IMG/VR virus record: IMGVR_UViG_3300035191_000065
Direction: 5' to 3' (one strand)
Source: an uncultured virus (IMG/VR IMGVR_UViG_3300035191_000065)
Lineage: Duplodnaviria; Heunggongvirae; Uroviricota; Caudoviricetes
DNA: 64,000 nt
Positions 27,046-58,513 of this stretch are shown here, in pieces. Positions within the stretch are counted from its first letter, which is position 1; every line of letters begins with the position of its first letter. The notes under the pieces were generated by a model, which saw only the letters and a list, made by a program, of their open reading frames with translations, was not told the DNA's origin and searched no databases. Both the position numbers and the translations under genes were made by a program.

Positions 27046-27092
27046 ATCAACCGGCCGCTCCGAGTGAAATGATTCGGGATGGGAAAAGGTGG

Positions 27093-39134: not shown

Positions 39135-39847
39135 GTCTCTACTTATAGGCCGTAGAGATGGCCTTTATGACACACCTATCGGCGGCTCGAACCAGTGCTG
39201 AAGTTGGGCTGTCTCTACTCATAGGCCGTAGAGATGGCCTTTATGACAACCAAGGCGCAAGTTTGGTTCGGTTCAGAATGGAGCAAGTCTCTACTCATAG
39301 GCTGTAGAGATAGCCTTTGTGACGGACGTAGCTAACGGAACCGGACTGCCCTACTCTACAGTGTCTCTACTCATAGGCCGTAGAGATGGCCTTTATGACA
39401 GGACGGGAAATATCGTTTACAGAGGAAGACAACCGATGTCTCTACTCATAGGCCGTAGAGATGGCCTTTGTGACTTCGTCCTTCGAGCACGAGTACATCC
39501 TGGGCTTGCTCCGGTCTCTACTCATAGGCTGTAGAGATAGCCTTTGTGACTCGTGCCCGCACATCTCGCTCCTCAGCGGCCTCTCGTCCTGTCTCTACTC
39601 ATAGGCTGTAGAGATAGCCTTTGTGACCTGTCAGAGGGTGGAGTTTACGATGCTGTTTATCCGTCTCTACTCATAGGCTGTAGAGATAGCCTTTGTGACC
39701 TTAACAATGGAAGCATTTTGATCAAGAATTCTAACTTGTCTCTACTCATAGGCTGTAGAGATAGCCTTTGTGACCCCTTTGAGGACAGAATGTTTGCGAA
39801 GCGTCTACATGTCTCTACTCATAGGCTGTAGAGATAGCCTTTGTGAC
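39135..39847 (-). CRISPR. CRISPR array: 10 repeats of 37 bp and 9 spacers of 35-40 bp
   Basis: Minus-strand repeat GTCAYAAAGGCYATCTCTACRGCCTATGAGTAGAGAC; plus-strand starts 39135, 39211, 39287, 39363, 39438, 39514, 39591, 39663, 39738, 39811; the 39135 copy carries an extra mutation, consistent with a trailer end. Confidence 0.98.
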
Positions 39848-41647: not shown

Positions 41648-41745
41648 TTGTTGCCTCCTTGGAGCCCTGGCCACTTTCTCAGAGTGACCAGGACTTATTA
41701 GTGGTGGTCACGATCCCACGGGCGTCCTGGGGATGAACGCCTGTG

Positions 41746-42576
41746 CTACCCGACCATCTCTTGAACGCGGCTCCTTTTGGTGCCGAAGGCGTAGGCTCGG
41801 CGACACTGGGAGCAGCTCCCGACGAACATCCCGTAGAACTTTTCGTTGAACTCTTTGAAGCGCTCGGGGAAGCCACCTGAGACAAAGTTGTGGACGCGAT
41901 CGTAGTCCCAGGTGCCGAAGGCGCACTTATAGATGACGCCGTCCTCGTCTATTAAGAACGTATACTTGTTAACAGGGTTGTGGCAGTAGCAAGCCATCAT
42001 CCCGAAGAGGCTCATGTCGAACGCAGAGCGCCCGACCGGAACGATCCCCATGTCGCTCTCGTCGCCTCCGACCTTGTGAAGCAGGTTGTGCTCCTTGCAG
42101 AACTCTTCTGCCGTGACCACATGTTTGTTTGTGTGCCACTTGTCGGTGGTGATGGCGAGGAAGCAGTGCTCGTGGGACTCCATGAATTCGAGGACTTGTC
42201 TTGAGGACTGTTCGTCCGCGGCCCAGTCGCCGTTTGTGACTAGGCGAGCGTAGTCGAGCCCCTCAACGATCATCCCCAGGACTTCTTCCCAGTCCGGGTT
42301 GAGCCAGAACTCGCCGCCCATGATGTTCGCCGAGTGGATGGGGTTTGCGTCGAGGAACTGGTGAACCAGCTCTGCGACCTCTGGGGGCATGTGCTTATCC
42401 TGCTGGGGTGATGAGGACCAGCAGCAGTGGCCACATTTCTGGGTGCATTTGAGAGTTAACCGAATGGTGGGGCGAAGAGTGCGGTAGCAGCAGTCGCGCT
42501 TGTCGCAGCTCTCGCAATCGCAATCTCTTCGCCCCTCGCACTTCGGGTCGATGCAGAACTGGCAGCGCTCGTTCAT
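41746..42576 (-). CDS. Radical SAM protein with C-terminal SPASM/twitch-like Cys motif
   Basis: CTQKCGHC, MGGE, VTNG, IDEDGVIYKC. Confidence 0.85.
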   Translation of the reverse strand: MNERCQFCIDPKCEGRRDCDCESCDKRDCCYRTLRPTIRLTLKCTQKCGHCCWSSSPQQDKHMPPEVAELVHQFLDANPIHSANIMGGEFWLNPDWEEVLGMIVEGLDYARLVTNGDWAADEQSSRQVLEFMESHEHCFLAITTDKWHTNKHVVTAEEFCKEHNLLHKVGGDESDMGIVPVGRSAFDMSLFGMMACYCHNPVNKYTFLIDEDGVIYKCAFGTWDYDRVHNFVSGGFPERFKEFNEKFYGMFVGSCSQCRRAYAFGTKRSRVQEMVG

Positions 42577-43187
42577 TTCTGGGCCTCGTCGTTGCTGATG
42601 AGACGGATGTGGACCGTCGCCGTGTCGTGGCTGACCCTGATCCGTCCCCAGGATGGAGTGATATAGAGGAAGCCGCTGCGCTGAAGGCAGTCGCACTTCC
42701 ACTCGGGGAGCCGTACCGGCTCGTCGCCGATGGACCGAGTCCGAGTGCCGCGCATGTCGGTCAGCTCGAAGACGTCGTGCGCGTTCATGCCGAGTTCGCT
42801 GATGCGGCCCACAGGCTTGCGATCCGGCGTCACGGTGACGACAAAATCCATGATTCGGTAGCCCGACTGATCGACCCTGTCCGTTGGGATGATGACGATG
42901 CCATCACACTCAATCTCGCCGTTGGACGAGAGAAGCATGACCCGGTCGAACTCTTCTGGAGTCATATGATTGGCGTCGTTCATTGGATTGATTCCTTTCG
43001 GGAAACACCTTTTGCAGGGGTCGTAGCTGACGGGTATCTCCCATTCGCGCTCCAAGGCGCTGACGTCTACCTTGGTTCCGCACTTGGGACGACCGCTCGC
43101 GTCGGCCAGGTGAAAGCGCGATCCCTTTCTGGTGTTGCTGTTGAGCACGAAGGCGTATCCGTGCGGTGCTGGGATGTTAGACTTCAT
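42573..43187 (-). CDS. Hypothetical protein
   Basis: H..C..CxxC N-terminal zinc motif; operon packing. Confidence 0.55.
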   Translation of the reverse strand: MKSNIPAPHGYAFVLNSNTRKGSRFHLADASGRPKCGTKVDVSALEREWEIPVSYDPCKRCFPKGINPMNDANHMTPEEFDRVMLLSSNGEIECDGIVIIPTDRVDQSGYRIMDFVVTVTPDRKPVGRISELGMNAHDVFELTDMRGTRTRSIGDEPVRLPEWKCDCLQRSGFLYITPSWGRIRVSHDTATVHIRLISNDEAQK

Positions 43188-43629
43188 GGGGCGCCACCCA
43201 GACGATGTGCGGCTTCCCATCGATTTCTGTTGTCAGCAGCTCGCTCTCTTCGGAGCCGGTGCCTCTAATGACACAGTTCAACTCGTCCTGGGACTCTTGG
43301 TTTATGGCGCGGCGGTGGTCGCGCTTTTTCACCTCGATCGCGACGACGTGAACGTTGACGCCGAAGAGAGTGGGAGAGGGAACACTGTCGTGGCTGTGGA
43401 AAAGGAGTGAGTGAGTGCTGGTCCGCTCCCAGTAGCCGTTCTCCTCCATCTTGAGGATTGCGGGAACGTGGCCTTTCTTGTTGCACTCGTGGCAGATGTC
43501 GAAGGTGTTGCCGTCGAAGTCTTCGACTTGTCTCCAGTCGCCCTTGACTTGCTCTCTGATCGAGTCGCCGGGGTTGTCCCGGTCGATCTCGATTGTTCTG
43601 CCGCAGACGTCACACTTCATGACGAACAT
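43177..43629 (-). CDS. Hypothetical zinc-ribbon protein
   Basis: CDVCG...DICHEC; AAAGGAG SD. Confidence 0.6.
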   Translation of the reverse strand: MFVMKCDVCGRTIEIDRDNPGDSIREQVKGDWRQVEDFDGNTFDICHECNKKGHVPAILKMEENGYWERTSTHSLLFHSHDSVPSPTLFGVNVHVVAIEVKKRDHRRAINQESQDELNCVIRGTGSEESELLTTEIDGKPHIVWVAPHEV

Positions 43630-43667
43630 GGCTGCTCCTTTCTCGTCCTGGGGACGAAGTTATATGC

Positions 43668-43988
43668 CTATGGGAGGCGTAGCCGGTAGAGCACCCGGCG
43701 CACCTTGGGGTTCTCGTGCTCGCGCCTGTGCTCTTGACGAGCAAGAGCGTATCCTTCTGGTGTCAGGTCCCAGCCATAGCCGTCTACCGTCGATCCGTAG
43801 TGGTTGGTATCACCCGGTTCAAGCCACGCTGCGAGACCGAGGCGTTGCAAACTCCGAATCGTCCGTAGTAGGCCGTTGGCTCTGTGTCCATTCTTTGGGA
43901 ATGCCCAGTTCCAGTCCTTCATGCGGAGGAGAGCTGCCCACTGATGTACAGAAAGTTTCGGTATTGGAACTTTGTCATCTGATGACAT
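43668..43988 (-). CDS. Hypothetical protein, winged-helix-like
   Basis: TIRSLQRLGL...WDLTPEG; AAGGAGGT SD. Confidence 0.55.
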   Translation of the reverse strand: MSSDDKVPIPKLSVHQWAALLRMKDWNWAFPKNGHRANGLLRTIRSLQRLGLAAWLEPGDTNHYGSTVDGYGWDLTPEGYALARQEHRREHENPKVRRVLYRLRLP

Positions 43989-43999
43989 TGAGACCTCCT

Positions 44000-44063
44000 T
44001 GGGACCAGGCCGGGGAGTCGAACCCCGGTCACCGTCCTCCAGATGATCTGGAAAACCCTGGTC
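44000..44063 (-). ncRNA. tRNA-like element without D arm
   Basis: GACCAGG...CCGGGG-TTCGACT-CCCCGG-CCTGGTC-CCA. Confidence 0.65.
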
Positions 44064-44103
44064 TGTCTTTCGTCTTGAAGATGGTGATGTCGTCCAGAAC
44101 GGA

Positions 44104-45159
44104 CTAGGCGGCGGCGTCCTTCTTCGCGGATCCCTTCTTCTTCGCGATGGTCGGACCCTTCTTCGGCGGGGTCTTGGTCTTGGAGGTGGTCTTGGCCGGG
44201 GACTTCTTGCCCTTCTCGTCGAGCGGCAACGTTTGCTGCTTGGAGTTGCCCTTCTTCGAGCCCTTCGCGTTGCCCTTCTTGGCCTTCTTCTTCTTGGCCT
44301 TCAGCTCCGCGACGACCTCGGCGAGGCCGACGTCCTCCAGGGTTACCTGGCCCAGCATGAACTGGAGGGCGCCCCAGAAGGAGTCGTACTTCTCCGCGAT
44401 TTCGGGCTTCTTGTCGAGGGCGACGAGCTTCTGCACGACGCGCTTCGATGGAGTGACCGGGCGGTTTCCGGTAGAGCGGCTGATATTCCGAGCCGTCGGC
44501 TTGACGCCGCTCGCGATGACCTCCTCGGCCTTCGTGACCTGCTCCGCATGTGGGAGCTTGACGAGCTGAGTGGCAGCCGACGCCGAGAGGGTGCCCTTCT
44601 TGATCATGGTCTGCACCTTCGGGGCGAGGTCCAGCAGCTTGAGGAGCTGCCGCACGTTGGCGACGGTGATACCGTAGGCGTTCGCCGCCGCCTCCTCGTC
44701 GCGCCCCATATCCATGAACTGAGCGATCTTCTCAGCCTTGGCGATGGGGGTGTCGTCTCGACGGTTCTCGTTCGCCGAGATGAGGATGCCGAAGAGCTTG
44801 GACGGGTCACCGGTCTTGAGGACGATCGGAACCAGGATCGGCTCCTTGCCCTCCCTGCGGAGACGCACGTTCGCCTCGCGAGCTGCGATGACTCGACCAC
44901 GGCCGTCGATGACGTAGGCGCGGTTCTCTCCGTCGTCGCTGACGATCTTCTGGACCTTCACGGCCTCGATGACGCCGTAGACCATCATGTTGCGGACCAT
45001 GCCCTCGTCAGGCTTGTCGTGGACGCGCTTGTCGTACAGGTGTGCAAGTTCAGCCGTCTTGGGGACGTCGTTTGGGCCGTTGCCTCCGACCAGAACGATC
45101 TCGTCGGGGTCGAGGAAGAAGCCGTTGAGCCTTGGACCCTTGAACGCTTGACCTCCCAT
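44104..45159 (-). CDS. ParB/RepB/Spo0J-like protein with Lys-rich histone-like tail
   Basis: VIDGRGR..A, ANENRRD.TP..KA, HTH, LL.LL.L.P.VQ..I..G.LS. Confidence 0.8.
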   Translation of the reverse strand: MGGQAFKGPRLNGFFLDPDEIVLVGGNGPNDVPKTAELAHLYDKRVHDKPDEGMVRNMMVYGVIEAVKVQKIVSDDGENRAYVIDGRGRVIAAREANVRLRREGKEPILVPIVLKTGDPSKLFGILISANENRRDDTPIAKAEKIAQFMDMGRDEEAAANAYGITVANVRQLLKLLDLAPKVQTMIKKGTLSASAATQLVKLPHAEQVTKAEEVIASGVKPTARNISRSTGNRPVTPSKRVVQKLVALDKKPEIAEKYDSFWGALQFMLGQVTLEDVGLAEVVAELKAKKKKAKKGNAKGSKKGNSKQQTLPLDEKGKKSPAKTTSKTKTPPKKGPTIAKKKGSAKKDAAA

Positions 45160-45274
45160 GGATCTGCCTCCTTTCGTACTGCTCGCGCTTCGCGGCAGCA
45201 CGTAGACGTTAGGTGTAACCAACGTCGACTTTGACTTCGTGATTCTGTGAAGTCGGTTGATGTTGTGGCTGTTG

Positions 45275-45571
45275 TTACAGCCGTGGGTCGTCTTTCGGAA
45301 TGAACGTGACCAGCTCGTGAAAGTCCGAGTCGTAGACCACTCCGCAGACTTGGTTGCGAAAGCGAATACGCCAGAGGGTTCGCTTTCTGCTCTGGCGTTC
45401 GATGCAGGCGCAGTCTTTGTTTCTTGTTCCTGCCCTGATCATCTCCAGGATTTCTTCCCTCCCTTCGTCGTCGAGGTCGATGCCGTAGCGGACTGAAGCC
45501 GAGACAATCGCGTGCCTTCTTAAGTCTGCGGCAGTCTTCTTTTTTCTTCGCCTTGATCGGCGTTCCGCCAT
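45275..45571 (-). CDS. Hypothetical basic protein
   Basis: AAGGAGGT SD; HA....RYG motif. Confidence 0.6.
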   Translation of the reverse strand: MAERRSRRRKKKTAADLRRHAIVSASVRYGIDLDDEGREEILEMIRAGTRNKDCACIERQSRKRTLWRIRFRNQVCGVVYDSDFHELVTFIPKDDPRL

Positions 45572-45589
45572 CTCACCTCCTTTCCCTTA

Positions 45590-45624
45590 TGGTGCCCTGA
45601 GATGCTTTTCACACATCGCAGGGC
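45590..45624 (-). other. tRNA minihelix mimic (12 bp, 7-nt loop, ACCA)
   Basis: GCCCTGCGATGT-GTGAAAA-GCATCTCAGGGC-ACCA, intergenic. Confidence 0.65.
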
Positions 45625-45633
45625 AGGATTTAT

Positions 45634-45879
45634 TCATTCGATGATGGGCTCGCTGACGACCTCGAAGCCGCCGACTTCGCGGCCCTCCCAGATGAACTTC
45701 TCGCCGCTGTCGTGGTAGCGCTGGAGAAGAGCGGTGTGAGAGCCGCTGGTGAGAAGCGCCAGCTCGTACTTGGTCGTCCATGCGGTGACGGCGAGAAAAA
45801 CGGTGTCGTGAGGCATCGGGATGCAGCCGATTTCGTCGCCAGATGTGTCCATCGCCAGGACGCAGTGTTTGAGTTTCAT
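45634..45879 (-). CDS. Hypothetical protein
   Basis: Start MKLKH with AAGGAGGA SD. Confidence 0.55.
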   Translation of the reverse strand: MKLKHCVLAMDTSGDEIGCIPMPHDTVFLAVTAWTTKYELALLTSGSHTALLQRYHDSGEKFIWEGREVGGFEVVSEPIIE

Positions 45880-45892
45880 GGCTCCCTCCTCC

Positions 45893-46480
45893 TTACGGCT
45901 CGATCGAGCGTTGGACCTGGCACTCGCAGTAGAGACCAGCATCGGCGAGGTAGTGATCGCCGCACATGGAGCACTGCGCGTAGCCGAGGCCCTCGGCTTC
46001 GTCCGCTGCTGCATCGAGGATGGTTTCCACGGCCTCGAAAAAACGTTTCTCGCCGATCGAGTAGGGGATTTCGGGTCCGTACTCGAATGACTCGGTGTTG
46101 TCGCCGCCGTCGAATATCCAGTAGCAGCGAGCGAAGCCGCAGTAGAGGTTGATGCCGCACTCGACTCCCATGGTGCCATTGTTGGAAACACCAGCGTCAT
46201 GCTTGGGATGGATGAACAGATGCGATCGGTCGATTCGCTCTTCGACCTCGGCGTCGGAAAGGTCGATGTCCGCGCCCTCGGGGATGCCAGCCGTGTTCGG
46301 GGACCGGATGTGAGTTATCATCGTCAGGATGATTCCCTTGCAGCAGGTTCCCCATCGGTCGTTGATGAGATCAAAGGCATCCTTGGCCGGGAGGAGTGGT
46401 CCATCGAGTAGATGGAAGCAGTCGGGGCACGAGCCCTTCTCGGCGGTGGGTTTGTTTCCGCACCATTCGCAGTAGCTCAT
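45893..46480 (-). CDS. Hypothetical Cys-rich protein
   Basis: Start overlaps the upstream stop. Confidence 0.6.
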   Translation of the reverse strand: MSYCEWCGNKPTAEKGSCPDCFHLLDGPLLPAKDAFDLINDRWGTCCKGIILTMITHIRSPNTAGIPEGADIDLSDAEVEERIDRSHLFIHPKHDAGVSNNGTMGVECGINLYCGFARCYWIFDGGDNTESFEYGPEIPYSIGEKRFFEAVETILDAAADEAEGLGYAQCSMCGDHYLADAGLYCECQVQRSIEP

Positions 46481-46953
46481 GGCGCCCTCAACTGCTTGAC
46501 GTGCTCAATGATGGTCGTTCGAGCGTGCTCGGCACCAAGCTCGTTCCAGAGCCATTCGAGCTGCTCGGAGAGGCCACCGTTGTTGACGTCGCTTCCCTCC
46601 TTGGAGGCGACGTCGTGAACAAGCTCGTCCATGTGCTCGACCAGCTCTTGCTCCACCTCGGAAGTTCCGCGCTTTGCACCGAGCATCTTCAGGATTTCTT
46701 CCTCAAGCTGTTCGCAAGCGTGCGCTGCTGACCAGACAGCATCGTTCGATAGTTCCGGGCCTTCGAGGTCGTACTGGTCTCCCTCGAAAACTGCCCAGTT
46801 CGCCTCGTCAGCAAGATGCAGAAACTCCACCGAGTCGTCGGCAAGCTCGCCGTTACCGTTCCTGACGGATTCGATGGCGTCCTGTGGATTTTCGGCCTCG
46901 ACCACGTAGTCGGCCAGGTGTGTCTCATGGACTCGTACAGTGAACTTGGGCAT
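46477..46953 (-). CDS. Hypothetical acidic protein
   Basis: AAAGGAG SD. Confidence 0.65.
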   Translation of the reverse strand: MPKFTVRVHETHLADYVVEAENPQDAIESVRNGNGELADDSVEFLHLADEANWAVFEGDQYDLEGPELSNDAVWSAAHACEQLEEEILKMLGAKRGTSEVEQELVEHMDELVHDVASKEGSDVNNGGLSEQLEWLWNELGAEHARTTIIEHVKQLRAP

Positions 46954-46965
46954 AGCTGCTCCTTT

Positions 46966-47166
46966 CTAGTCAGTGACGACTGCCTCGGCACCGCACTCGT
47001 TACAGGTCCAGGTGTTGTCGGGGTCGGGGCCGTGGACAACTTCGCCGACACCAGAGTCGGCAGATTCCACGTACTCGCCGTTCTCATCGACAACCCAGTC
47101 CTCGGTGACATGCGTCACGGTGATGAACCTTCTGTGGTTCGTGTCGTTCGGGCAACGCGCTTTCAT
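46966..47166 (-). CDS. Small zinc-ribbon protein
   Basis: CP...F...HV...W.VD..G...WTCxxCG; AAGGAGG SD. Confidence 0.65.
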   Translation of the reverse strand: MKARCPNDTNHRRFITVTHVTEDWVVDENGEYVESADSGVGEVVHGPDPDNTWTCNECGAEAVVTD

Positions 47167-47199
47167 GGTCCCTCCTTACTCGTCCTGGGGACGAAATTT

Positions 47200-47234
47200 T
47201 GGTCCCTGTCCTCGGGTATCAGCCGGGGACAGAG
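47200..47234 (-). other. tRNA minihelix mimic
   Basis: CTCTGTCCCCGG-CTGATAC-CCGAGGACAGGG-ACCA, intergenic. Confidence 0.6.
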
Positions 47235-47253
47235 ATGATGGTGGGATGACAGG

Positions 47254-48066
47254 TTACTCGTCTTCGGCTGGGAACCAACGCCAGATGGAGACGTAAGCTC
47301 CGTCGTTGCTCTCTGAGACCTGGGGTTCGTCGTCGATGTCCCAGTCGTTCTCATCCAGCTCGTGTCGGAAAAACTCTCGGGCTCGCTCTCGGTAAATGTC
47401 TTCGGACGAAGGCATCGTCTGTGGGAGAGGTCGAGGGGTTGGCTCACCCTGAAGGCGCTCGATGGGGATCAGGGTCTTCTTGCAGAGAATCCAGCCCTCT
47501 TCTTCGGCGTCGTCTTCTGCGCCCATTGTCTTCAGGCCCTCGCGGGCTTCTTCGGGCGTCTTGTAGATAAAATCGAAGGCGAACTCGTGCTTGTGAGGGT
47601 CAGACCATGGAACAAGGAGTCTTCGGGTTGTTTCTCCCTCAACCGTCGCCAGGATGCGCCAGGTGTACCAAGTCTCGGTGGGTGGCAAGGAGTGAGTCGG
47701 CACGGGTGTCGGTTCGTCCTCAATACCCTCGGCGACTTCATCGTTGAGGGCTGCAGTGCATCGTCGCTGCTGCAACTCGCTCAGGTGCTCCTCGATGGTG
47801 CTCTCGCTGGCGAGCCCGTAAAGCTCGGCGGCTGTCTTGCGCCAGAAGTGAAGCTCGTTGTGATCGGGAAGCTCGATCGTCTGGCGACCGCCGATTTCGA
47901 TCCATTCGTCCTCGCTGTCTGGCTCGTAAAGATCCTCGCCAATGATGGCGATGACCTCTTCCTCGGTCGGGCCGCGTTCAGGGTCTTTGCACTGATGAGC
48001 GAACACCGGCCAGGCGTCGGTCCCGTGCCGGTGCGAGTAGATGACGGTCCAGTAAAAAACAGTCAT
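47254..48066 (-). CDS. Hypothetical acidic protein (270 aa)
   Basis: AAAGGAG SD. Confidence 0.65.
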   Translation of the reverse strand: MTVFYWTVIYSHRHGTDAWPVFAHQCKDPERGPTEEEVIAIIGEDLYEPDSEDEWIEIGGRQTIELPDHNELHFWRKTAAELYGLASESTIEEHLSELQQRRCTAALNDEVAEGIEDEPTPVPTHSLPPTETWYTWRILATVEGETTRRLLVPWSDPHKHEFAFDFIYKTPEEAREGLKTMGAEDDAEEEGWILCKKTLIPIERLQGEPTPRPLPQTMPSSEDIYRERAREFFRHELDENDWDIDDEPQVSESNDGAYVSIWRWFPAEDE

Positions 48067-48098
48067 GGCTGCTCCTTTCCCCGTCCTTGGGACGGATT

Positions 48099-48392
48099 TT
48101 ATCCGATGCCACCGACAATCTTCAGCCCATGCTCCTCGCAGAACCGAAAAACCTCGAAGGCGTTTGTGAAAAAGGCGAAGTCTTCGTCGGGGCTTTCATT
48201 CTCTATGATCGCCTCGTAGACATCACCGTTAGGAAAGAGCCGGTCATTAACCGCAGACATGACCGAGCCACGAGAGTAGTGCTTCGTCCTTTTGCACTCC
48301 CGTCCGTACTCTTCCCAGATGCTCGGCTTGACGAGGTGATAGTAAAAGTCCTCGCCGCCACCGTCCGTCACGATTAAAAAACGTTCTTTCAT
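48099..48392 (-). CDS. Hypothetical protein
   Basis: GAGGT SD. Confidence 0.55.
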   Translation of the reverse strand: MKERFLIVTDGGGEDFYYHLVKPSIWEEYGRECKRTKHYSRGSVMSAVNDRLFPNGDVYEAIIENESPDEDFAFFTNAFEVFRFCEEHGLKIVGGIG

Positions 48393-48458
48393 TTCGTACC
48401 TCGGTCCTCGGCGTGCGCGGAAGCTGACCACGCCGAGGATGTATGTTCGTCTTGGGGA

Positions 48459-48797
48459 TTACGCGGCGAGTTTTGCGGCCCACTTTGCTGCGAGCTTGGC
48501 ACGCATGACCTCGATCGGCTCGATGAATTCGGGCCACACGACCGGGCCGTCGTGAAAGAGTGGTGTCTTGTGGTTGGTGCCCATCTTCCAGCCTCGTCGC
48601 CAGGATTCTTGGACGACGAGGTCGTGATAGGCAGCGAGCGCGGGTAGGAAGCCGCGCCAGCGGTTGACCTCGGGGTGATGTTGATAGCCCTTCTCGGGGT
48701 CGAGGATGATGTTGTTAATGGCGTGAATCTCGTTGTGAACGCCCGTGAGCCTCGGGCCGTCGAGGCAGAGCGGGGGGATTGGATACCAGACGCGCAA
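48459..48797 (-). CDS. Pyrimidine dimer DNA glycosylase / endonuclease V family protein
   Basis: MRVW..PP..LD..RL...H.E.H...GY.HHP...RW...L..YH..V.E..RRG. Confidence 0.7.
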   Translation of the reverse strand: MRVWYPIPPLCLDGPRLTGVHNEIHAINNIILDPEKGYQHHPEVNRWRGFLPALAAYHDLVVQESWRRGWKMGTNHKTPLFHDGPVVWPEFIEPIEVMRAKLAAKWAAKLAA

Positions 48798-48827
48798 TGT
48801 CAGCTCCTTTCTTCGTCCTGGGGATTT

Positions 48828-49142
48828 TTACTGAATAAACGCCTTTTCAGCGTCCTGGCCGAGAGCGGTAGCGGTCTCGCGGGGCAAATGGATGACGCGC
48901 CCGCTGCTAAGATCGGTCGCGGTGCCATCATAGCCCTTGGATCCGGGGGGGAAGCCCTGGTTCTCGATGTCGAATGAAGCGACAACGAAACGCCAGAGAG
49001 GAGATCGTCCGTAGGTGCCGGTGTAGCCCATCGCCTCTGGGTGGTCCTTAATGGGCAGCATTTCCCACTTGATTCTGCCTCGCTTAATAAATGCGAGGAA
49101 CTTGTCGTGGAGCTTGAGCATTTCAATCTCGGTCGGTGTCAT
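48828..49142 (-). CDS. Hypothetical protein
   Basis: SD present; operon packing. Confidence 0.55.
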   Translation of the reverse strand: MTPTEIEMLKLHDKFLAFIKRGRIKWEMLPIKDHPEAMGYTGTYGRSPLWRFVVASFDIENQGFPPGSKGYDGTATDLSSGRVIHLPRETATALGQDAEKAFIQ

Positions 49143-49314
49143 GGTCCTTTCCTTCCTCGTCCTGGGGACGGACGACCATAGTTTGCAACTGCTCTTTGAG
49201 GTTGCGCTCGAAGGTGGTCAGCTCCTCGTCGGGTGACTCGGCGTTCTCTTCCATCTCCTCCAGCGTGGCAAGCCAATGCTGGCCCCACTTGTTCCATCTG
49301 TCCTGTGTTGCCAT
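49123..49314 (-). CDS. Hypothetical protein
   Basis: AGGAGG SD; coupled to the upstream stop. Confidence 0.45.
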   Translation of the reverse strand: MATQDRWNKWGQHWLATLEEMEENAESPDEELTTFERNLKEQLQTMVVRPQDEEGKDHDTDRD

Positions 49315-50009
49315 CAGTCGTCCTCCTGATGCGCATCTGCCACGGCGCTGTCAGCGAGCTTCCCGGCCTCCTCGAATGCACGCTGAGTTTGGTCCTCTTT
49401 CCAGTCGAAGGGCTGCTCTCCGATGTCGATCGCGTAGTCGGAAAGCTCAGTCTCGGGGATTTCTTGAACATGGAAAGCGTAGGGAGCAGAATTCTCGTCG
49501 TAGGCGACGAGGCGCGCTTGCTCGGCGGACGGTGCGCGGACATAGACGTTGTCCCAGCTCCGATCGTCGTAGCAGAGAATGATCTCGTGATACTGGCATC
49601 GGGTGAGCCAGTGGGCGCACATGAACAGATCGAGTACCGTCAGTTCGTCGAACGACTCGGCGTCCACGATCTCGTGACCGAGTTTTAGCAGCTCATCGAA
49701 AACCTGATTCTCGGTTTTGTATTCGCAGTGGTCGGCGATGCCCCGGATCGCGTCGATGAGCTGGATGTCAGCCGAGTCAACGTAGCCAGCCAGTTCGATT
49801 AGCTTCTCTTTGACTCGCGGAAGAACTGGCGTGAACTCGATAACCGTTCCCTCGTGATAGCACTCGGAGCACTGGCACGATGAGTTATCGTTCCACTCGA
49901 CGTCGCCATAATCGTCAGTGCCGTCAGGGGCGACTTGGAATACGGATGTCGCTTCAATGCTGAACCAACCGCCGTCGTACCCGCACTTGGGGCACTTCAT
50001 ATCAGACAT
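49314..50009 (-). CDS. Hypothetical protein with N-terminal zinc ribbon
   Basis: Start MSDMKCPKCG with GAGGAGG SD. Confidence 0.65.
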   Translation of the reverse strand: MSDMKCPKCGYDGGWFSIEATSVFQVAPDGTDDYGDVEWNDNSSCQCSECYHEGTVIEFTPVLPRVKEKLIELAGYVDSADIQLIDAIRGIADHCEYKTENQVFDELLKLGHEIVDAESFDELTVLDLFMCAHWLTRCQYHEIILCYDDRSWDNVYVRAPSAEQARLVAYDENSAPYAFHVQEIPETELSDYAIDIGEQPFDWKEDQTQRAFEEAGKLADSAVADAHQEDD

Positions 50010-50118
50010 GGTATCCCTCCTCTCTGCGACGCGAAAGATTCTGCGACGCGATGGTCCCTCGCTGCGCGAAAGCTGACCAACGAGAGAAAACGTATTACTC
50101 AGTCCTGGGGATGAATTA

Positions 50119-50547
50119 TTACCGGGCGTAGATGACGAACCCGAGCCCCATGCTATCGGACTCGTAGTTTGCTGTCGTGTGAAACTCGCCGAGCCCATCG
50201 ACCATGACGGCGGGGCAGCACTTTCCGAACATGCCTCGACCGGAATAGTCCCAATTGATTTCGAGCCCCTGCTCCTCGGCGTCCCGAACGAACTGCTTTT
50301 GGTTGTCGCTCAGTTCGTAGTCGCAGTAGGCGCTCCAGTCCTCGTCTTCATCGTCTTCGCCGTCCTCGATGATGTCGCCCTCATGGTAGACGCCGACAAA
50401 CGAGACGTGCTCAACACCTTCGCGGTCCAGTCTTTCGAGCAGCTTCTCTTCTGCCTCCTCGGGCGTTGAGGCTTCGATGAACTTGGTGTTCCAGTGTCCG
50501 CCGGGCACTCCAAACCCAACATACATTTCATACTGTCGTTTCTTCAT
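50119..50547 (-). CDS. Hypothetical acidic protein
   Basis: GAGGAGG SD; YSGRGM.G..C...DSMGLG..IY motif recalled from phage early genes. Confidence 0.65.
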   Translation of the reverse strand: MKKRQYEMYVGFGVPGGHWNTKFIEASTPEEAEEKLLERLDREGVEHVSFVGVYHEGDIIEDGEDDEDEDWSAYCDYELSDNQKQFVRDAEEQGLEINWDYSGRGMFGKCCPAVMVDGLGEFHTTANYESDSMGLGFVIYAR

Positions 50548-50823
50548 GGTATCCCTCCTCTCTGCGTCCTGTAGACGCTAAAAACATGATTCTCGAAGCC
50601 GTACCTTACTCACCATCTACACCGGTTCGATGGCTTTCATCCACGCCTTCCCTTCTCGGTCGGCCTTTTCATGCCTTTCTCCCGTCTGTGACATGGGGGC
50701 GTTACCACCCTGGCCTTCATTCGTGATAACTCGGCATACCGACGCCTCCAGCGTCGAGAACCATGGTCCTCAAGCGGCGCGAAAGCTAACCGTCTTGAGG
50801 ATTTTTTGTTTGTCTATTGGTAG

Positions 50824-51297
50824 CTAGTTGATGCTGAAGTCGTGGCGAGGCTGAAGTCGAACGACAACAGCCTCGGGCTCTTGCCGCTCGCCAGCGATGG
50901 CGTCGAAAGCCGCGTGGGCTGCTCTCAGAGTGAGGTGGAAGTCTTCGAGAAGCTCAGCGATTGTGGCGACGAGCATCGCCATCTGTGCTTCCATGACGGG
51001 GATGAGCTTTCGAGCTTCTTCGGCCTGCGCGTGCCGCTCAGGTGTGATGATGACGATGTCGTCTGTGTCTGCGTCTTCAAGACGCTTTTCGTACTCGGCC
51101 TTCATGCGCTCAAGCTCGTTACCGTGCTTGGTGATCGCCTCGATTCCGCGCTCACAGACCGGGCAGTCGCACTCCCCGTGCATGTGCTTCCAGCGACCGA
51201 CGTCACGTAGGAGCGAGTTGATCGAGCAAGGGAGGCATGGGCACTGGTCCTCGTGCTCCATACGCTTGATTTCTTCTGCGACCAATGCTGCAAGCAT
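50824..51297 (-). CDS. Hypothetical Cys-containing protein
   Basis: Start MLAAL with AAAGGAG SD; two CxCxxC motifs. Confidence 0.6.
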   Translation of the reverse strand: MLAALVAEEIKRMEHEDQCPCLPCSINSLLRDVGRWKHMHGECDCPVCERGIEAITKHGNELERMKAEYEKRLEDADTDDIVIITPERHAQAEEARKLIPVMEAQMAMLVATIAELLEDFHLTLRAAHAAFDAIAGERQEPEAVVVRLQPRHDFSIN

Positions 51298-51409
51298 GGC
51301 TGCTCCTTTCTTCGTCCATTGTACAGGACGAACATAGTTGCTGACTTCTGACAAAAAAACTGGTCCCTGTTGCACGCGAAAGCTGCTGCAACAGAGAAGG
51401 TGTTAAAGG

Positions 51410-51664
51410 TTAATGGAGCCGCCGAGGGAATCCCGGCAGAGGGTCGGCCCGACCGATGGTTGCGGTCCAGCCGTCGTTGAAGTTGCGGCGCAGGTACTTG
51501 CACCATGCGGAAGCGGTGGTGTGATTCGAGCAGACCCGACGACCGCCGCGCCACTGAACGAACCAGCGACCCTTGTAGTAGTCCGGGTGATTGACGAAAG
51601 CTCCGATCGCTTCGCCGAACTGTGTCCATACAGAATCGGCTTCGACCGGCTCGGTTTGGGGCAT
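51410..51664 (-). CDS. Hypothetical protein
   Basis: Start MPQTE with AAAGGAG SD. Confidence 0.5.
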   Translation of the reverse strand: MPQTEPVEADSVWTQFGEAIGAFVNHPDYYKGRWFVQWRGGRRVCSNHTTASAWCKYLRRNFNDGWTATIGRADPLPGFPRRLH

Positions 51665-51693
51665 ATCATCTCCTTTCTTCGTCCTGGGGACGA

Positions 51694-52011
51694 TTATCTC
51701 CACTCTTCCAGCTCGTCCATGACGGCGAGGACGAGCCATTCCATGTGTTGGACGTTGTCGAGCATCTGCCCGTGCTCTGAGCAAACATCGAAAACGGTGG
51801 TGGTCCTGCGGCTGATATGGCTTTCGGCTCGCTCGCGAAGGCGCGAAACGTGCGCCATAAATTCCAGATGATACCAGCCGCCCTCTTCGTAGTAGTGCCA
51901 AGTGGAGCATTTGCAGGCGCCGTGGTATTCCTCGCCTTGACGGGGTTCGATGACCTGCTCACAGGTCGCGCATTCTTGCCTGCCCATGAGGTTTCGTTTT
52001 GCTTGTCTCAC
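51694..52011 (-). CDS. Hypothetical Cys-containing protein
   Basis: AGGAGG SD. Confidence 0.5.
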   Translation of the reverse strand: MRQAKRNLMGRQECATCEQVIEPRQGEEYHGACKCSTWHYYEEGGWYHLEFMAHVSRLRERAESHISRRTTTVFDVCSEHGQMLDNVQHMEWLVLAVMDELEEWR

Positions 52012-52020
52012 TTGAGCCTC

Positions 52021-52398
52021 CTATGCGCAGTGAACGCAGGTCCCGTGTTCGTCCTGGGTCTGGATGATGAGCTGGCCAGGCTTGGGCAGGGTGGGCTCGC
52101 GCCACGGCTTGAACTCGCCGCGAATCGTCTTGAGGATGTATTCGAGTGCTTTGGCGCGGCTGCACCAACTAAACGTGATGCTCTCGCACTGAAGCATGCT
52201 CGGCTCGTGAACGACAGCGTACTCCTGGGCTCCGTCCGGGCTCGTCGAGTCATTGAGGAAGAGATAATCCCCAAGACGAAACCCATTACAGCCGCACCAC
52301 GTCATCTCGGTGAGCTTGCGAGCGAGTTGCTTGGCGCCAGCCTCCAGAGAGACGGACTTGATGTCCGTCACGACTCGTCGTCTTCTTGGAAAAAGCAT
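52021..52398 (-). CDS. Hypothetical protein
   Basis: W..C.GF....LFLNDSTS.DGAQEYAV..ESITFSW conserved-looking motif; GAGGAGG SD. Confidence 0.6.
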   Translation of the reverse strand: MLFPRRRRVVTDIKSVSLEAGAKQLARKLTEMTWCGCNGFRLGDYLFLNDSTSPDGAQEYAVVHEPSMLQCESITFSWCSRAKALEYILKTIRGEFKPWREPTLPKPGQLIIQTQDEHGTCVHCA

Positions 52399-52475
52399 TT
52401 TATCCCTCCTCGCGTCCTGGGGACGCCGCTGGTCCCTCGCTGCCAGCTCCAAGGCCAGCGGCGAGAGAAAGTCAC

Positions 52476-52889
52476 TCACTCCTCGAACTCGAATGAATCA
52501 CCTGGAGTACCGCAGCACGGACACCGAGCGGGCTGTGCGCGATCGCGAAACTCGCACGATGGGCATTCGTAGTAGGGAGGAGAGTCGGGTTGTTCCGAGG
52601 GCGGTGGGATGGAGAAGTGGTTAATGAGAACGTCGAGGAACTGTGCCAGTGTGAACGCTGCGTGATCCTCGACGTCGTAGTCTGAGTATGATTCGTTGAT
52701 GATGAGAAGCCAGTCATCAAACCGCCGTGTTGGCACACCGTCCAGGGATTCGAGTCTGATCAGAGCGTCCTGAAGACACATGTCGGCCTGATCGCAAGTC
52801 GTGATGATGTCGGCAACTGGAGTCGCTCCGACATCATGCACGCACTCCTTCGCCTCTTTGATGTCGTCGATTAGTCCTTTGATAGTCAT
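52476..52889 (-). CDS. Hypothetical protein with C-terminal rubredoxin-like zinc ribbon
   Basis: YECPSC...P.RCPCCG. Confidence 0.6.
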   Translation of the reverse strand: MTIKGLIDDIKEAKECVHDVGATPVADIITTCDQADMCLQDALIRLESLDGVPTRRFDDWLLIINESYSDYDVEDHAAFTLAQFLDVLINHFSIPPPSEQPDSPPYYECPSCEFRDRAQPARCPCCGTPGDSFEFEE

Positions 52890-53131
52890 GACGTCTCCTC
52901 GATGAGCCGCTCAGTCTCGACATAATCGAGGTAGAGGTTGTGGTCGTGGAAGCGCTGGTCAGCGGCGTACTCGTTGGCGCAGTGCTCCGAGCAGAATGCC
53001 GAGTCCTGGGGATACACAGGCTCGCCATCCTCGTCAGCGTTGGGCTTTCCGCATACTGGGCACTCCTCGGGAATGTCGTATCCGCCTTGTGCTGCCAGGC
53101 AGTCGTGGCAGCCTCCGCACATACATCTCAT
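52886..53131 (-). CDS. Small Cys-rich protein
   Basis: CPVCGK...FCS..C; GAGGAGG SD. Confidence 0.55.
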   Translation of the reverse strand: MRCMCGGCHDCLAAQGGYDIPEECPVCGKPNADEDGEPVYPQDSAFCSEHCANEYAADQRFHDHNLYLDYVETERLIEETS

Positions 53132-53258
53132 GGTGTCCCTCCTCTCTGCGTCCTGGGGACGCATGTTGTTTAGTGGTCCCCGCCAGGGCTTCTCACACCC
53201 TGCCGGGAATGGTTTGGAATGTCGCCGGAACAGATTGGAATATTCGTCCTGGGGATGG

Positions 53259-53624
53259 TCAGTCTGCGTCCATCTCTTCGAGTAGCTCGCCGCTCTCGTC
53301 GCGCACGCTGATGATCTGGGCGCGCATCGAGTCGAGCGTTTCGAGCATGTCGTCGAGCCCCTCGGTGCGAATGGCGTGGGCCTCCAAGGCGAGGTTGAGC
53401 TTGCGCTCCTTCTCGCCGACGAGGTCGATCAGCTCGCCGATAAAAGTGTTCAGTGACTCGATGTTCTTGCAAAGAACAGGGATGTCCTCTTCGGTGCACT
53501 CCTCGGGCTTGGGGAGCGGCGCAGCCTTCATTAAGCTCCCACGTCGTCCAGCGAGGGCGAGTTGGAGCATTCCCTCGTAGGTGGCGGCGATGGGCTTGCC
53601 CTGTGCTTCGGTTTGCTCAGACAT
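53259..53624 (-). CDS. Hypothetical coiled-coil protein
   Basis: AGGAGG SD. Confidence 0.6.
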   Translation of the reverse strand: MSEQTEAQGKPIAATYEGMLQLALAGRRGSLMKAAPLPKPEECTEEDIPVLCKNIESLNTFIGELIDLVGEKERKLNLALEAHAIRTEGLDDMLETLDSMRAQIISVRDESGELLEEMDAD

Positions 53625-53734
53625 GTTGTCCCTCCTGTTTTACGTCCATCCTGGGGACGCTCTGTTGGTTCCCGTCGGGACTTTCACACCCCGACGGGAA
53701 AGTTTTGGAACGGCACTGGAACGAACTGGAATAC

Positions 53735-54418
53735 TCAGTGAGTCGTCGTGTCTGCTTCGGCCTCGCCCTCGGCCTCTGCCGCCTTCTTCTCGTTCATCAT
53801 CTCGACGTAGCGCTCCAGCGTTAGTAGGACCCGCTCGATCTCGTCGGGGTCCATGCTGATCGAACGGGTACGCATACCGGGGAATCCAGTCGAGCGGCGA
53901 GCCTTGATGCCGAGCTTCTCGAAGCGGGCGAGCTGCTTGTCGATGCGACGAGCGATCGCCAGATCCTCGGCTTCAGCCTCAGCCTTCTCGCGGGCCTTTT
54001 TCTCCTCCTCCAGATGGATTTCGAGGAGCGGCACGCGGTCCTCGTCGATGTGAGCCTGGGCTCCGGGTCCGCCAAGCTCGTAAACGTCTTCGGGGATGTC
54101 GCAGAGGCACGCCGAATCGGCTGAGTTGTTGTCGTGGTTGTTGACGGCGACACAGTAGTCGTTGCGGTAGTGGTGCGTAGTGGCGATTCTGATGTCGTGC
54201 TTGGCGAGCCAGCGGGCAGCCCGCTTTTGCTTCTTGCCGAACACATCGCGCTTCTGCTGTCGCCAGGGCTTGACGAGCTTGATCGTCGTCCCTTTGGCGA
54301 GGATGACAGCCCCCTCGTTCTCTTCCTTGTTCCAGTAGCGGCAAGCTAATGCCTTTTCAAATGGCACCAAATAACCTGCTAGCCGCTCGCGGCACTTCGG
54401 GCACTTTACCTCGATCAT
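53735..54418 (-). CDS. Hypothetical protein
   Basis: Start MIEVKCPKC with GAGGAGG SD. Confidence 0.65.
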   Translation of the reverse strand: MIEVKCPKCRERLAGYLVPFEKALACRYWNKEENEGAVILAKGTTIKLVKPWRQQKRDVFGKKQKRAARWLAKHDIRIATTHHYRNDYCVAVNNHDNNSADSACLCDIPEDVYELGGPGAQAHIDEDRVPLLEIHLEEEKKAREKAEAEAEDLAIARRIDKQLARFEKLGIKARRSTGFPGMRTRSISMDPDEIERVLLTLERYVEMMNEKKAAEAEGEAEADTTTH

Positions 54419-54537
54419 GTTGTCCCTCCTCTCTCGCTGCTCAGTGACTCGATTGGACCCCCCAACCGTGAGGGAGGGACGGTCCCAAGCCGAGGAGCCC
54501 AATCGGGCCACCGAGAAACGAAATGGTTAGTGAATCG

Positions 54538-54632
54538 CAAAAAAAGGCTAGTGAGGCGCAGACCGCGCCTCGAAATGCTCAGTGAAGCGGCAAAAAAAGC
54601 GCGGGCCGGTCGAGCCAGCCTCGCGCTTTTTG
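54538..54632 (-). terminator. Two tandem intrinsic terminators inside the early block
   Basis: Minus strand: GCGCGAGGC...GCCCGCGC+T7, then GAGGCGC/GCGCCTC...T7. Confidence 0.6.
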
Positions 54633-54662
54633 CGTCCCGTTCGCTTCGTCCTGGGGATGATT

Positions 54663-54730
54663 TGGGGCACGGCGCGGGAGTCGAACCCGCTCGACCGTCC
54701 TGGGGACGTTCGATCCTTGCTTTGCCGTGC
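54663..54730 (-). ncRNA. tRNA-like element (7-bp acceptor, T arm, D-replacement loop, CCCA end)
   Basis: GCACGGC-AAAGCAAGGA-[TCGAACGTCCCCAGGACGGTCGA]-GCGGG TTCGACT CCCGC-GCCGTGC-CCCA. Confidence 0.7.
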
Positions 54731-54795
54731 GCGGCTCGACCGTCCTGGGGACGATTGAGCCGGTTTCGGGTTGGTAACGATGTTTCGGAACCGAG

Positions 54796-55809
54796 CTAGA
54801 TCGCGCCGACCATGTCGTCGCCGTCGCCCGCGATCTCCTCCTCCACCTCGCCGTCGCCGAAGAGGTCGCCCTGGTCGGCGATCGCTTCGGTTTCGGCTTC
54901 GGCGGACTGGTCCGCGAGTGCCGCCGCCTGGACGAGCGCGGCCTGCATATCGCTGATCATGTCGGAGTCCACGGTGTTGAGCGCGGCCTCATACTCTTCG
55001 TCGGATTCCTTGCTCGCCTTGACCCAAGCCGTCGCCGACTTGCGGATCGAAGCGACCATGTCGGTCACGGCGAGCCCGGCCTCTTCGGGGAGCAGAGTGG
55101 AGAATGACTTGGCTTCGGCGATCGCCTTGCGGGCGAGGTCCGCCCGAATCTTGGCGATGATGGCGATCCGCTGCTCGCGGGGGGCCTTCATGACCTCTTT
55201 CGCGGTCTTGAAGTCGCCGAGCTGGTTGGCGCGGGCGTTCTCCAAGATCGCTTGCTCGTCGGCCTGGACTGCGCCATTGACGCGCTCCAAGATGTCGCCG
55301 AGCTGCTCGGTGACAGCCGCGATAGTGCCGCTGTTGTTGCCCTCGACACTGTACAGACCATAGCGAAAGACGAGGTCCATGGTTTGAGCGGTCTTGTTGA
55401 ACGCCTTGACCCGGTTGTGGCAAGCGGAGAGGGTCTGCGCAAGCTCTTGCTTGCGGTGTGCCGCGACGATCAGCCCCACGGCGGTTTCGCAGCCGAGCTT
55501 TTTGACGTCACGATGCACCTTGGCCCGCTCTTTGTCTGCCCGCTTTAGCTCGTCCTCGTCGTAAATGACGCGGACTGCTTTCCAGGTCTCGGTTTTCTTA
55601 CCACCCTTGCCCTTGCGGACCTTGATGTCCTCCCGTTTCGTCTCGCGCCCACCCCGCATATGACAGGTCAGGTTGACGAGAATGCCGGGGAGAATCGACT
55701 TGATGACGAGAGACTCGGGATCGATCACATGAACGATCTCGGGGGTGCTCTCGGTGGTCTCCTCGGTGGTCTCCTCGGTGGTCTCGGTTCCGTTTGTCTC
55801 GTTAGCCAT
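54796..55809 (-). CDS. Hypothetical helical protein (337 aa) following the AAA module
   Basis: Start MANET with AGGAGG SD. Confidence 0.7.
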   Translation of the reverse strand: MANETNGTETTEETTEETTESTPEIVHVIDPESLVIKSILPGILVNLTCHMRGGRETKREDIKVRKGKGGKKTETWKAVRVIYDEDELKRADKERAKVHRDVKKLGCETAVGLIVAAHRKQELAQTLSACHNRVKAFNKTAQTMDLVFRYGLYSVEGNNSGTIAAVTEQLGDILERVNGAVQADEQAILENARANQLGDFKTAKEVMKAPREQRIAIIAKIRADLARKAIAEAKSFSTLLPEEAGLAVTDMVASIRKSATAWVKASKESDEEYEAALNTVDSDMISDMQAALVQAAALADQSAEAETEAIADQGDLFGDGEVEEEIAGDGDDMVGAI

Positions 55810-55853
55810 GTTGTCCCTCCTGCCGGCTTGATACATTGCCGGCTGTTGTTTCC

Positions 55854-55920
55854 CGGTCTCCGACGCGGGGGTCGAACCCGCTCAATCATCCTGGGGACGA
55901 TTGAACCACATTTGCCGGAG
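55854..55920 (-). ncRNA. tRNA-like element, sibling of 54663-54730
   Basis: CTCCGGC-AAATGTGGT-[TCAATCGTCCCCAGGATGATTGA]-GCGGG TTCGACC CCCGC-GTCGGAG-ACCG. Confidence 0.7.
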
Positions 55921-55978
55921 AGGATCGACCGTCCTGGGGACGATCGATGCGTTGTAGAATGAAGACGCTTGCGCGGTC

Positions 55979-57685: not shown

Positions 57686-57801
57686 TGTCCCTCCATTTGA
57701 GCCAGAAAGTGACTCAACAGTACGCCAAAATCGTGCAGACTTTGACGCACTGTTGAGCCGCCTTGCGGCGACTCATGACGATTTGATTGTGAAGCAATAG
57801 G

Positions 57802-58314: not shown

Positions 58315-58513
58315 GACCTAATCCCTTCCGTTGTTGCAGTGGATCGGCCCGCTAACGGGCTTTCCAATGTCGAGGTTGAGCGCTTCGTCAATCAGCATGA
58401 CGCCACCAGGCATGATCACGATATGAGCGGTCATGCTGGCTTGTGTCGTGCCGTTCGACTCGACTGGTGCGCCAAAGGCGAGACCTTGTCCTTCGTCCTG
58501 GGGACGATCTTTT

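Follow-up and report, generated by a model that had tools for sequence, protein, structure and literature searches.

In the tRNA punctuation model of animal mitochondria, tRNA-like structures lie between the coding regions. Among the non-tRNA substrates of RNase P in E. coli and its phages are the precursor of the C4 antisense RNA of P1/P7 and, in operon mRNAs, intercistronic regions, and the early mRNA of phage T7 is cut at intergenic hairpins by host RNase III, an enzyme which needs about 20 base pairs (bp) or more of duplex. In plant mitochondria, t-elements as well as acceptor-stem-like stem-loops at mRNA ends have been proposed or shown to direct cuts by RNase P and RNase Z (PMC1920247). 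Bacterial RNase P accepts as model substrates hairpins composed of an acceptor stem, a T-stem, a T-loop and a 3' CCA (McClain, Guerrier-Takada & Altman 1987, cited in PMC11143913). Here we describe a family of short CCA-ended hairpins which punctuates a block of small genes in the uncultured virus IMGVR_UViG_3300035191_000065 (Caudoviricetes). The analysed stretch of 64,000 nucleotides (nt), hereafter the window, corresponds to the reverse strand of bases 60,057-124,056 in the 182,770-bp phage genome (GC content 0.567). The genes of the block, predicted by a simple and rather crude caller of our own, all lie on the minus strand of the window, which accordingly is the sense strand. Positions refer to the window unless the genome is named.

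A preliminary description of this stretch had listed ten hairpins at gene junctions, nine of them ending in ACCA and one in ACCG. All ten are found at their sites and fold as claimed into single hairpins on the minus (sense) strand, with folding free energies (dG) from -13.4 to -25.2 kcal/mol; the tail reads ACCA in eight, ACCG in one (48402-48438) and CCACCA in one (41702-41756). The two loop classes noticed earlier were likewise recovered, namely GTGARAA-like loops in three copies (class 1) and AGCTTYC loops in four (class 2). From five copies of equal length we built a covariance model, designated R1, whose scores and expectation values (E) are given below for copies outside its training set.

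53666..53700, minus strand: class-1 minihelix, T + 12-bp stem-loop with loop GTGAAA + A + CCA; dG -21.4 to -21.6; R1 30.2 bits, E 1.6e-4, not a training row
53174..53209, minus strand: class-1 minihelix, loop GTGAGAA, CCA; from folding, R1 training row
52430..52468, minus strand: minihelix with 14-bp stem, loop CTTGGA, CCA; from folding, R1 20.6 bits, E 0.028
51361..51397, minus strand: class-2 minihelix, loop AGCTTTC, bulged G, CCA; from folding, R1 23.5 bits, E 0.0057
50764..50801, minus strand: class-2 minihelix, CCA; from folding, R1 just 10.3 bits, E 7.2
50052..50087, minus strand: class-2 minihelix, CCA; from folding, R1 training row
48402..48439, minus strand: class-2 minihelix, CCG end; from folding, R1 13 bits, E 1.6
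47200..47235, minus strand: minihelix, loop CTGATAC, CCA; from folding, R1 training row
45590..45625, minus strand: class-1 minihelix, loop GTGAAAA, CCA; from folding, next start codon 18 nt on
41702..41756, minus strand: longer hairpin, CCACCA end, TCCCCAGGAC motif in its apical part; from folding
41660..41695, minus strand: additional member, A + 12 bp + T + CCA (closing pair A-T), loop CTGAGAA; 12 nt before the start of a Cas12-like gene
32305..32341, minus strand: outlying additional member, A + 13 bp + T + CCA; R1 15.1 bits, E 0.53
27090..27128, either strand: GC-rich palindromic hairpin between convergent genes, CCA on the sense side; the other strand folds more stably

Since the hairpin at 27090-27128 is more stable on the non-sense strand, it probably represents a bidirectional terminator and is a doubtful member of the family. 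The CCG tail of the copy at 48402-48439 overlaps the ribosome-binding site of the next gene.

The copies measure 35-38 nt overall, beginning with T-CYCY and ending with RGRG-A-CCA. Counted between the flanking bases T and A, exactly 31 nt (12+7+12) are found in six of the 11 copies, within a total range of 30-34 nt, which confirms the tRNA acceptor-plus-T-arm (top-half) geometry and agrees with a minihelix-type RNase P substrate, i. e. a coaxial helix of about 12 bp with a 7-nt loop. In every copy the base preceding the stem (T) is complementary to the base following it (A), and T...A has jointly switched to A...T at 41660-41695 and at 32305-32341. Because these flanking bases are complementary throughout and covary, the helix probably consists of 13 bp with CCA directly behind it rather than of 12 bp plus a free discriminator. 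Of the ACCA end described earlier, CCA is present in nine of the ten block copies, and the preceding A looks paired with the T in front of the helix. The sequence at the base of the stem is retained (CTCT/CCTC/TCCC ... AGGG/GAGG/GGGA) and the interior is variable; among the aligned copies, half have U-G as the second pair of the stem, and one pair is C-G throughout. In an alignment which was fitted to the model and composed of sequences preselected as hairpins, 95.6% of the cells are paired and double changes occur at 12 of 13 pairs; these statistics document that the stem sequences differ between copies and do not demonstrate selection on the stems. The sense fold is more stable than the antisense fold in nine of 12 copies (summed dG -249 versus -214 kcal/mol), in agreement with the distribution of G-U pairs (18 sense versus 8 antisense), so that the bias of these pairs towards the sense strand, too, is confirmed. 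Class-1 loops (UGUGA.., UGAGA..) match UGNRA, the consensus of T-loops, unlike the class-2 loops (AGCUUUC) and the remaining two.

With the model substrates of bacterial RNase P the phage hairpins share the single helix of about 12 bp, the 7-nt loop, the CCA behind the helix and, mostly, the U in front of it. In contrast to these substrates, however, they are natural, genome-encoded and mRNA-internal and occur in more than ten copies; furthermore, their loops are either no T-loops (class 2) or only T-loop-like by the UGNRA consensus (class 1), and positions -1 and 73 look paired. The RNase III sites of T7 are comparable in that they are intergenic hairpins at which a host RNase cuts polycistronic mRNA, as is proposed here, but the helices described here measure 12-14 bp and carry a CCA tail. 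Similarly, the C4 precursor and the operon sites are phage or operon RNAs cut by RNase P at tRNA-like CCA helices, yet these are single sites whereas the hairpins described here form a repeated family that punctuates an entire block.

The preliminary description had suggested comparing the hairpins with shuffled sequence and with the opposite strand, and this comparison clearly speaks for an enrichment. A stem finder requiring at least 10 pairs with at most one mismatch was applied to genome positions 70,300-82,450 (about 41,600-53,750 in the window). In this 12-kb block it detects 36 hairpins on the sense strand, eight of which are directly followed by CCA and seven of these also show the T...A closing pair. 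In 300 dinucleotide shuffles of the block, CCA-tailed hairpins amount to 0.34 on average (maximum 2) and those with the additional T...A pair to 0.05 (maximum 1), while the antisense strand of the block contains one CCA-tailed hairpin. In the remaining genome, CCA follows 6 of 429 hairpins on the plus strand and 11 of 494 on the minus strand. If only strong intergenic hairpins (dG <= -14) are considered, CCA follows nine of 12 and CCG one of 12 on the sense strand of genome 70-97 kb, but CCA follows none of 44 located elsewhere or on the other strand; the true member at 53174-53209 is missing from this list owing to a spurious gene call. R1 at E<=0.6 retrieves six further copies within the genome and five in relatives, all of them on the sense strand. 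Every R1 match above 15 bits lies on the sense strand, the top antisense score being 14.1 bits, and the members are confined to the sense strand of genome 54-110 kb; the remaining 152,770 bases contain no match at E<=1. Two matches are probably spurious, one at 8427-8462 of the relative L129, which lies within a gene, and one at genome 102,500-102,547, which has a large loop and scores 15 bits.

The block comprises 25 junctions, and at the 13 whose spacer measures at least 60 nt a CCA/CCG hairpin is present in ten and a tRNA-like element in one, while all 12 shorter junctions are devoid of either. Hairpins start 7-49 nt past the upstream stop codon and end 9-216 nt ahead of the next start codon, both distances being variable. 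The flanking genes are small and belong to no known family according to our family scans. Only ten of the 31 tRNA genes of the phage encode CCA, compared with nine of the ten block hairpins, which argues that the tail is selected and does not reflect a habit of the tRNA genes. A U precedes 20 of these 31 tRNAs and also most of the hairpins.

Just upstream of two class-1 hairpins (53701-53740 and 53210-53250, minus strand) three TTCCA repeats occur at a spacing of 8-11 nt, and two strain variants (T>C at 53220 and 53235) fall into one of these stretches. In a comparison of contigs from four DNA runs with 41600-56100, none of 40 variant places out of 63 falls into a hairpin, from which, at the low depth, nothing can be concluded.

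At the same kind of junction as the hairpins, three fuller tRNA mimics had been reported, and all three were found to possess a T-arm, an acceptor stem and a CCA or CCG tail:

55854..55920, minus strand: element a, acceptor stem, 10-nt linker, arm topped by CGTCC-CCA-GGACG, T-arm, tail A + CCG; after the AAA ATPase gene, a position kept in the relatives L129 and L130
54663..54730, minus strand: element b, acceptor stem, 10-nt linker, arm topped by CGTCC-CCA-GGACG, T-arm, C + CCA
44000..44063, minus strand: element c, 7-bp acceptor stem, long triloop arm, T-arm CGGGG-TTCGACT-CCCCG, CCA directly before the ribosome-binding site

These elements are Y-shaped: a canonical T-arm (GGTTCGAnnCC) is combined with an acceptor stem of 7 bp and a triloop arm of 9-10 bp, and a single-stranded linker replaces the D-arm. 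The T-arm motif GGTTCRANYCC within a tRNA-like fold is present in a, b and c and absent from the hairpins themselves. Genuine tRNA genes are nevertheless not at hand: ARAGORN calls no tRNA in the window and no Rfam match in the window attains the gathering score, the only one at E<=5 being a weak tRNA-Sec match of element c (22.7 bits, E 1.6, gathering score 47). The coexistence of fuller T-arm-bearing and reduced hairpin forms, as well as the interspersion of coding regions with tRNA-like structures or bare stem-loops, is shared with the t-elements of plant mitochondria. The phage case differs from the latter in its setting, in the CCA being encoded instead of added, in its much higher density (11 of 25 junctions), in its conserved loop classes and in the presence of a companion motif.

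Further support comes from relatives. Among the matches listed in a protein search, the neighbouring AAA ATPase belongs to a lineage of metagenome proteins of 42-96% identity, and contigs of 50,903 to 291,722 bp carry ATPases of 64-69% identity. Three relatives, L129 (ATPase 67% identical), L130 (57%) and L131 (53%), were compared; they are syntenic with the phage over eight genes, and the L131-like contig L211 (5,717 bp), the one find of a scan of genome contigs, shows a match at the same place as L131. In L129, a tRNA-like element ending in GTCGGGA-ACCA directly follows the ATPase gene and, one gene further, a TAATCCCCAGGATG motif precedes a hairpin (9381-9417) with a class-2 loop (TGCTTTCGCG) and the end GGGGACCA. 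L130 possesses a tRNA-like element with a GTCCTCAGGAT arm, which is the homologue of element a and carries the tail CTGG. L131 contains five sense-strand hairpins of the type CCCCGG...CCGGGG which include loops (CTTTCGG) similar to class 2 and end in CCA (three) or CCG (two); four of the five are situated immediately behind reading frames or between them, and the one at 279-317 is inside a listed, possibly false frame. As to the conservation of CCA in homologous junctions, on which the preliminary description had made its proposal depend, the family recurs in three relatives with CCA or CCG tails, and the homologue of element a in L130 has no CCA. The genes beyond the hairpins in L129 (9453-9849) and L131 (5066-5575) have no homologue in the phage while the eight upstream genes are syntenic, which places the hairpins at the border of a variable region. 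A megablast search of the block against annotated phages and plasmids returned nothing, and tblastn of the ATPase against annotated collections returned just mycobacteriophage genes of 33% identity. Neither single-protein locus scans of viral contigs nor a second viral scan yielded relatives. The exact CGTCCCCAGGACGA motif gave only single chance matches in viral contigs, at loci unrelated by tblastn, and a combined pattern scan gave four loci, all of which are unrelated.

Several known classes of elements do not account for the hairpins. As to canonical rho-independent terminators, a consensus scan for terminator-like sites did not pick up any of the hairpins, and a T-run is found in one copy only (51361-51397), where it begins 5 nt past the stem. 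The phage does own canonical hairpin-plus-T-run terminators, two of which stand in tandem on the same strand after element b (about 54591-54631 and 54538-54571); since the hairpins lack such a U-tract, they are not canonical terminators, and the possibility raised at the outset that they are ordinary ones is not borne out. Sigma-70-like promoters number three in 19.5 kb versus 4.3 expected, and none is located at a hairpin junction. CRISPR repeats were rejected, as the repeat of the array found in the window differs in sequence and the hairpin stems are unlike one another. The boxB hairpins fit neither in size nor in their ends. Integron attC sites feature RYYYAAC ... GTTRRRY cores, a length of 57-141 nt and extrahelical bases; in the hairpins, which comprise 35-38 nt, no such cores are readable.

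The hairpins are accompanied by a second repeated element, the CGTCCCCAGGACG motif:

41724..58979, mainly minus strand: dispersed 13-nt motif C[G/A]TCCCCAGGACG, 5-bp stem with CCA triloop; from a scan allowing at most one mismatch

The motif matches 47 times in the window, compared with 5.47 expected, a number attained in none of 100 shuffles, and 24 of the 28 matches with at most one mismatch in 41,000-59,000 lie on the minus (sense) strand. In seven genes the T of its TCCCC is found 25-27 nt ahead of the start codon. In two of the tRNA-like elements the tip of the long arm, too, consists of this motif, and variants are kept in L129 and L130. Its apex CGTCC-CCA-GGACG is retained while the stem extension covaries between copies, which favours a hairpin over a protein-bound DNA palindrome. 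Some copies are preceded by a -10-like or -35-like hexamer, so that a promoter or operator role is conceivable; the motif may be a promoter, an operator or an RNA operator, and it may serve as the promoter of a phage polymerase. No phage RNA polymerase family was matched by the 100 proteins of at least 190 amino acids compared with PHROGs, 95 of which were also compared with Pfam, and two proteins of about 900 amino acids and of no known family show no sequence match in the PDB.

As regards the phage itself, its DNA is present in wetland-metagenome runs, and none of the runs listed as containing it is an RNA run. The family scans identified replication and lysis genes of phage type, three radical-SAM proteins, a ParB-like protein encoded inside the block and an integrase fragment. 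The phage furthermore encodes an RNA ligase and a Ro60 homologue (genome 174,717-176,303); a Y RNA has no Rfam match in the phage. ARAGORN places the 31 tRNA genes together with one tmRNA at the far end of the genome (166,145-182,765). In the same region at least seven T-arm-bearing sequences are not called as tRNAs (genome about 169,698; 169,768; 177,995; 178,184; 178,473; 178,627; 178,660), several of which have a ..TACATTG.. stretch in common. Two further features lie next to one another:

39911..41674, minus strand: gene for a protein of 578-587 amino acids with a Cas12f1-like TNB domain as its sole Pfam match
39135..39847, minus strand: CRISPR array directly after the Cas12-like gene, 10 repeats of 37 nt and 9 spacers of 35-40 nt

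The nine spacers match nowhere else in the phage genome, and no link to the hairpins was found. Upstream of the ATPase gene, two very long hairpins are located (58764-58821 and 57706-57764; 25-26 bp, dG -45 and -37.5), and L129 contains comparable long hairpins, one of them duplicated (5289-5343, 6293-6347). An in-gene tandem repeat of the 12-nt unit CTCGGTGGTCTC is present in four copies at 55738-55785; the contig of one run lacks one unit (12 nt left out at 55750). An int-alpA RNA motif scores above the Rfam gathering score (40.3 bits) at genome 40,625-40,699 on the minus strand (L116 4625-4699).

We tentatively propose that the hairpins are mimics of the tRNA top half which recruit host RNase P and 3'-end enzymes in order to process polycistronic mRNA, a reading we consider quite possible though short of probable. 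The block would give rise to a long polycistronic RNA, with host RNase P cleaving it at the 5' base of every helix. On the 3' side, an endonuclease would cut downstream and exonuclease trimming would be halted at the helix and CCA, with possible repair of CCA by host enzymes. In this way the operon would be divided into segments, with a stable tRNA-like helix enclosing or capping their ends, and the D-armless tRNA-like elements would constitute the same device in a less reduced form. Structure, strand, placement, enrichment, conservation in relatives and the missing terminator tails are directly observed, while we infer every enzymatic step of RNase P and 3'-end processing. That host tRNA enzymes cut the polycistronic mRNA had already been put forward in the preliminary description; geometry, sense-strand bias, T-arm elements, relatives and the lack of a U-tract are in line with this idea, but the pairing of positions -1 and 73, the class-2 loops and tails reading CCG or lacking CCA are not.

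A number of observations indeed weigh against this proposal. Normally, RNase P substrates have a free discriminator, although bacterial tRNA-His contains an extra -1/73 pair; in the hairpins, every copy has complementary bases at -1 and 73, which also covary, so a free discriminator is probably absent. The class-2 loops (AGCTTTCGCG) are unlike a T-loop, and the conserved loop classes point to a specific binder. The tail ends in CCG in one block copy, in two of the five L131 copies and in element a, and in CTGG in the L130 homologue. The 3' arm together with the tail (AGGGACCA) resembles the ribosome-binding box of the block, GGAGGGAC, such that the conserved bases could serve other recognition. 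The pair counts derive from a model-fitted alignment of sequences picked as hairpins. Finally, no RNase P RNA is detected in the phage by Rfam.

The foremost rival explanation, which we hold to be rather unlikely yet worth serious attention, regards the hairpins as regulatory cassettes resembling the PeSL of T4-type phages, each attenuating transcription or protecting the 3' end of the gene before it. A repeated module made up of the conserved stem base, the CGTCCCCAGGACG box and the ribosome-binding box would then mark cassette borders and maybe drive recombinational shuffling, and CCA would merely be part of a conserved box. According to PMC4122927, PeSL are repeated stem-loops with a conserved stem base and a variable interior, situated between small variable genes of a plastic region in which gene content shifts. 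The same is seen here, as the hairpins flank small genes of no known family, gene content in L129 and L131 diverges directly past the hairpin with upstream synteny kept, and a second conserved box stands at a fixed distance from start codons. In contrast to PeSL, however, the phage hairpins are accompanied by neither a sigma-70 promoter (three found versus 4.3 expected) nor a terminator tail, even though the phage has canonical terminators, and they display a fixed tRNA-like length plus CCA instead. The explanation thus leaves the 12+7+12 geometry, the CCA after the helix and the co-placed T-arm elements unaccounted for. Less plausible still, and in our estimate unlikely, is that the hairpins are sites for one or several sequence-specific RNA-binding proteins of phage or host, such as a regulator of translation or a lambda N/boxB-type antiterminator, which would recognise the loops while the stem serves as a scaffold. 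The conserved loop classes (GTGARAA and AGCTTTCGCG), the second of which is kept in L129 and similar to CTTTCGG in L131, would be well explained in this manner; the purine-rich GTGARAA recalls the GNRA-like loops of boxB, and the companion apex CGTCC-CCA-GGACG is kept while its extension covaries. On the other hand, two copies with different loops (CTGATAC and CTTGGA) share length and tail, boxB consists of 5-bp stems in one or two copies per genome, and no candidate protein emerged from the family scans.

The encoded CCA and the tRNA-top geometry would also suit minihelices of about 36 nt which, once released, would serve in trans as sponges or decoys that engage enzymes or host toxins acting on tRNA acceptor ends. 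Although the phage invests heavily in tRNA biology (31 tRNAs, tmRNA, Ro60 homologue, RNA ligase), we judge such a role very improbable; the strictly intergenic placement beside ribosome-binding sites is better suited to a role in cis, and stems as varied as these would hardly imitate one particular tRNA. Our last alternative places the function at the DNA level, where the hairpins would be recombination sites comparable to integron attC or to IS200/IS605 ends, or protein-bound palindromes. The punctuation of small reading frames of the same direction does recall attC sites, and the phage carries a TnpB/Cas12-like gene as well as an integrase fragment, but the elements have half the size of attC without readable GTTRRRY/RYYYAAC-type cores, variable stems are ill-suited to a DNA-binding protein, and G-U pairs as well as fold energies favour a sense RNA; hence, we assign hardly any likelihood to it. 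Returning to the proposed recruitment of tRNA-processing enzymes, a considerably extended version may be envisaged in which CCA-tailed mimics, D-armless elements and the CCA-triloop hairpin constitute a modular punctuation kit made from tRNA parts, which would cut, cap and tune every early message via host RNase P and CCA-end enzymes and whose released minihelices of about 36 nt would act as decoys. We consider this version improbable.

In full-text searches of the openly accessible literature, we found no description of such a family of CCA hairpins in a phage. Should the hairpins be processing signals, they would represent tRNA-style punctuation of mRNA in a DNA phage, hitherto known from mitochondria and from single bacterial RNase P sites. 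If this holds true, phages can shrink a tRNA to a cassette of about 36 nt which is reused for the control of operon expression. It would constitute a compact and portable RNA-processing module and would give reason to annotate CCA-ended minihelices in phage genomes.

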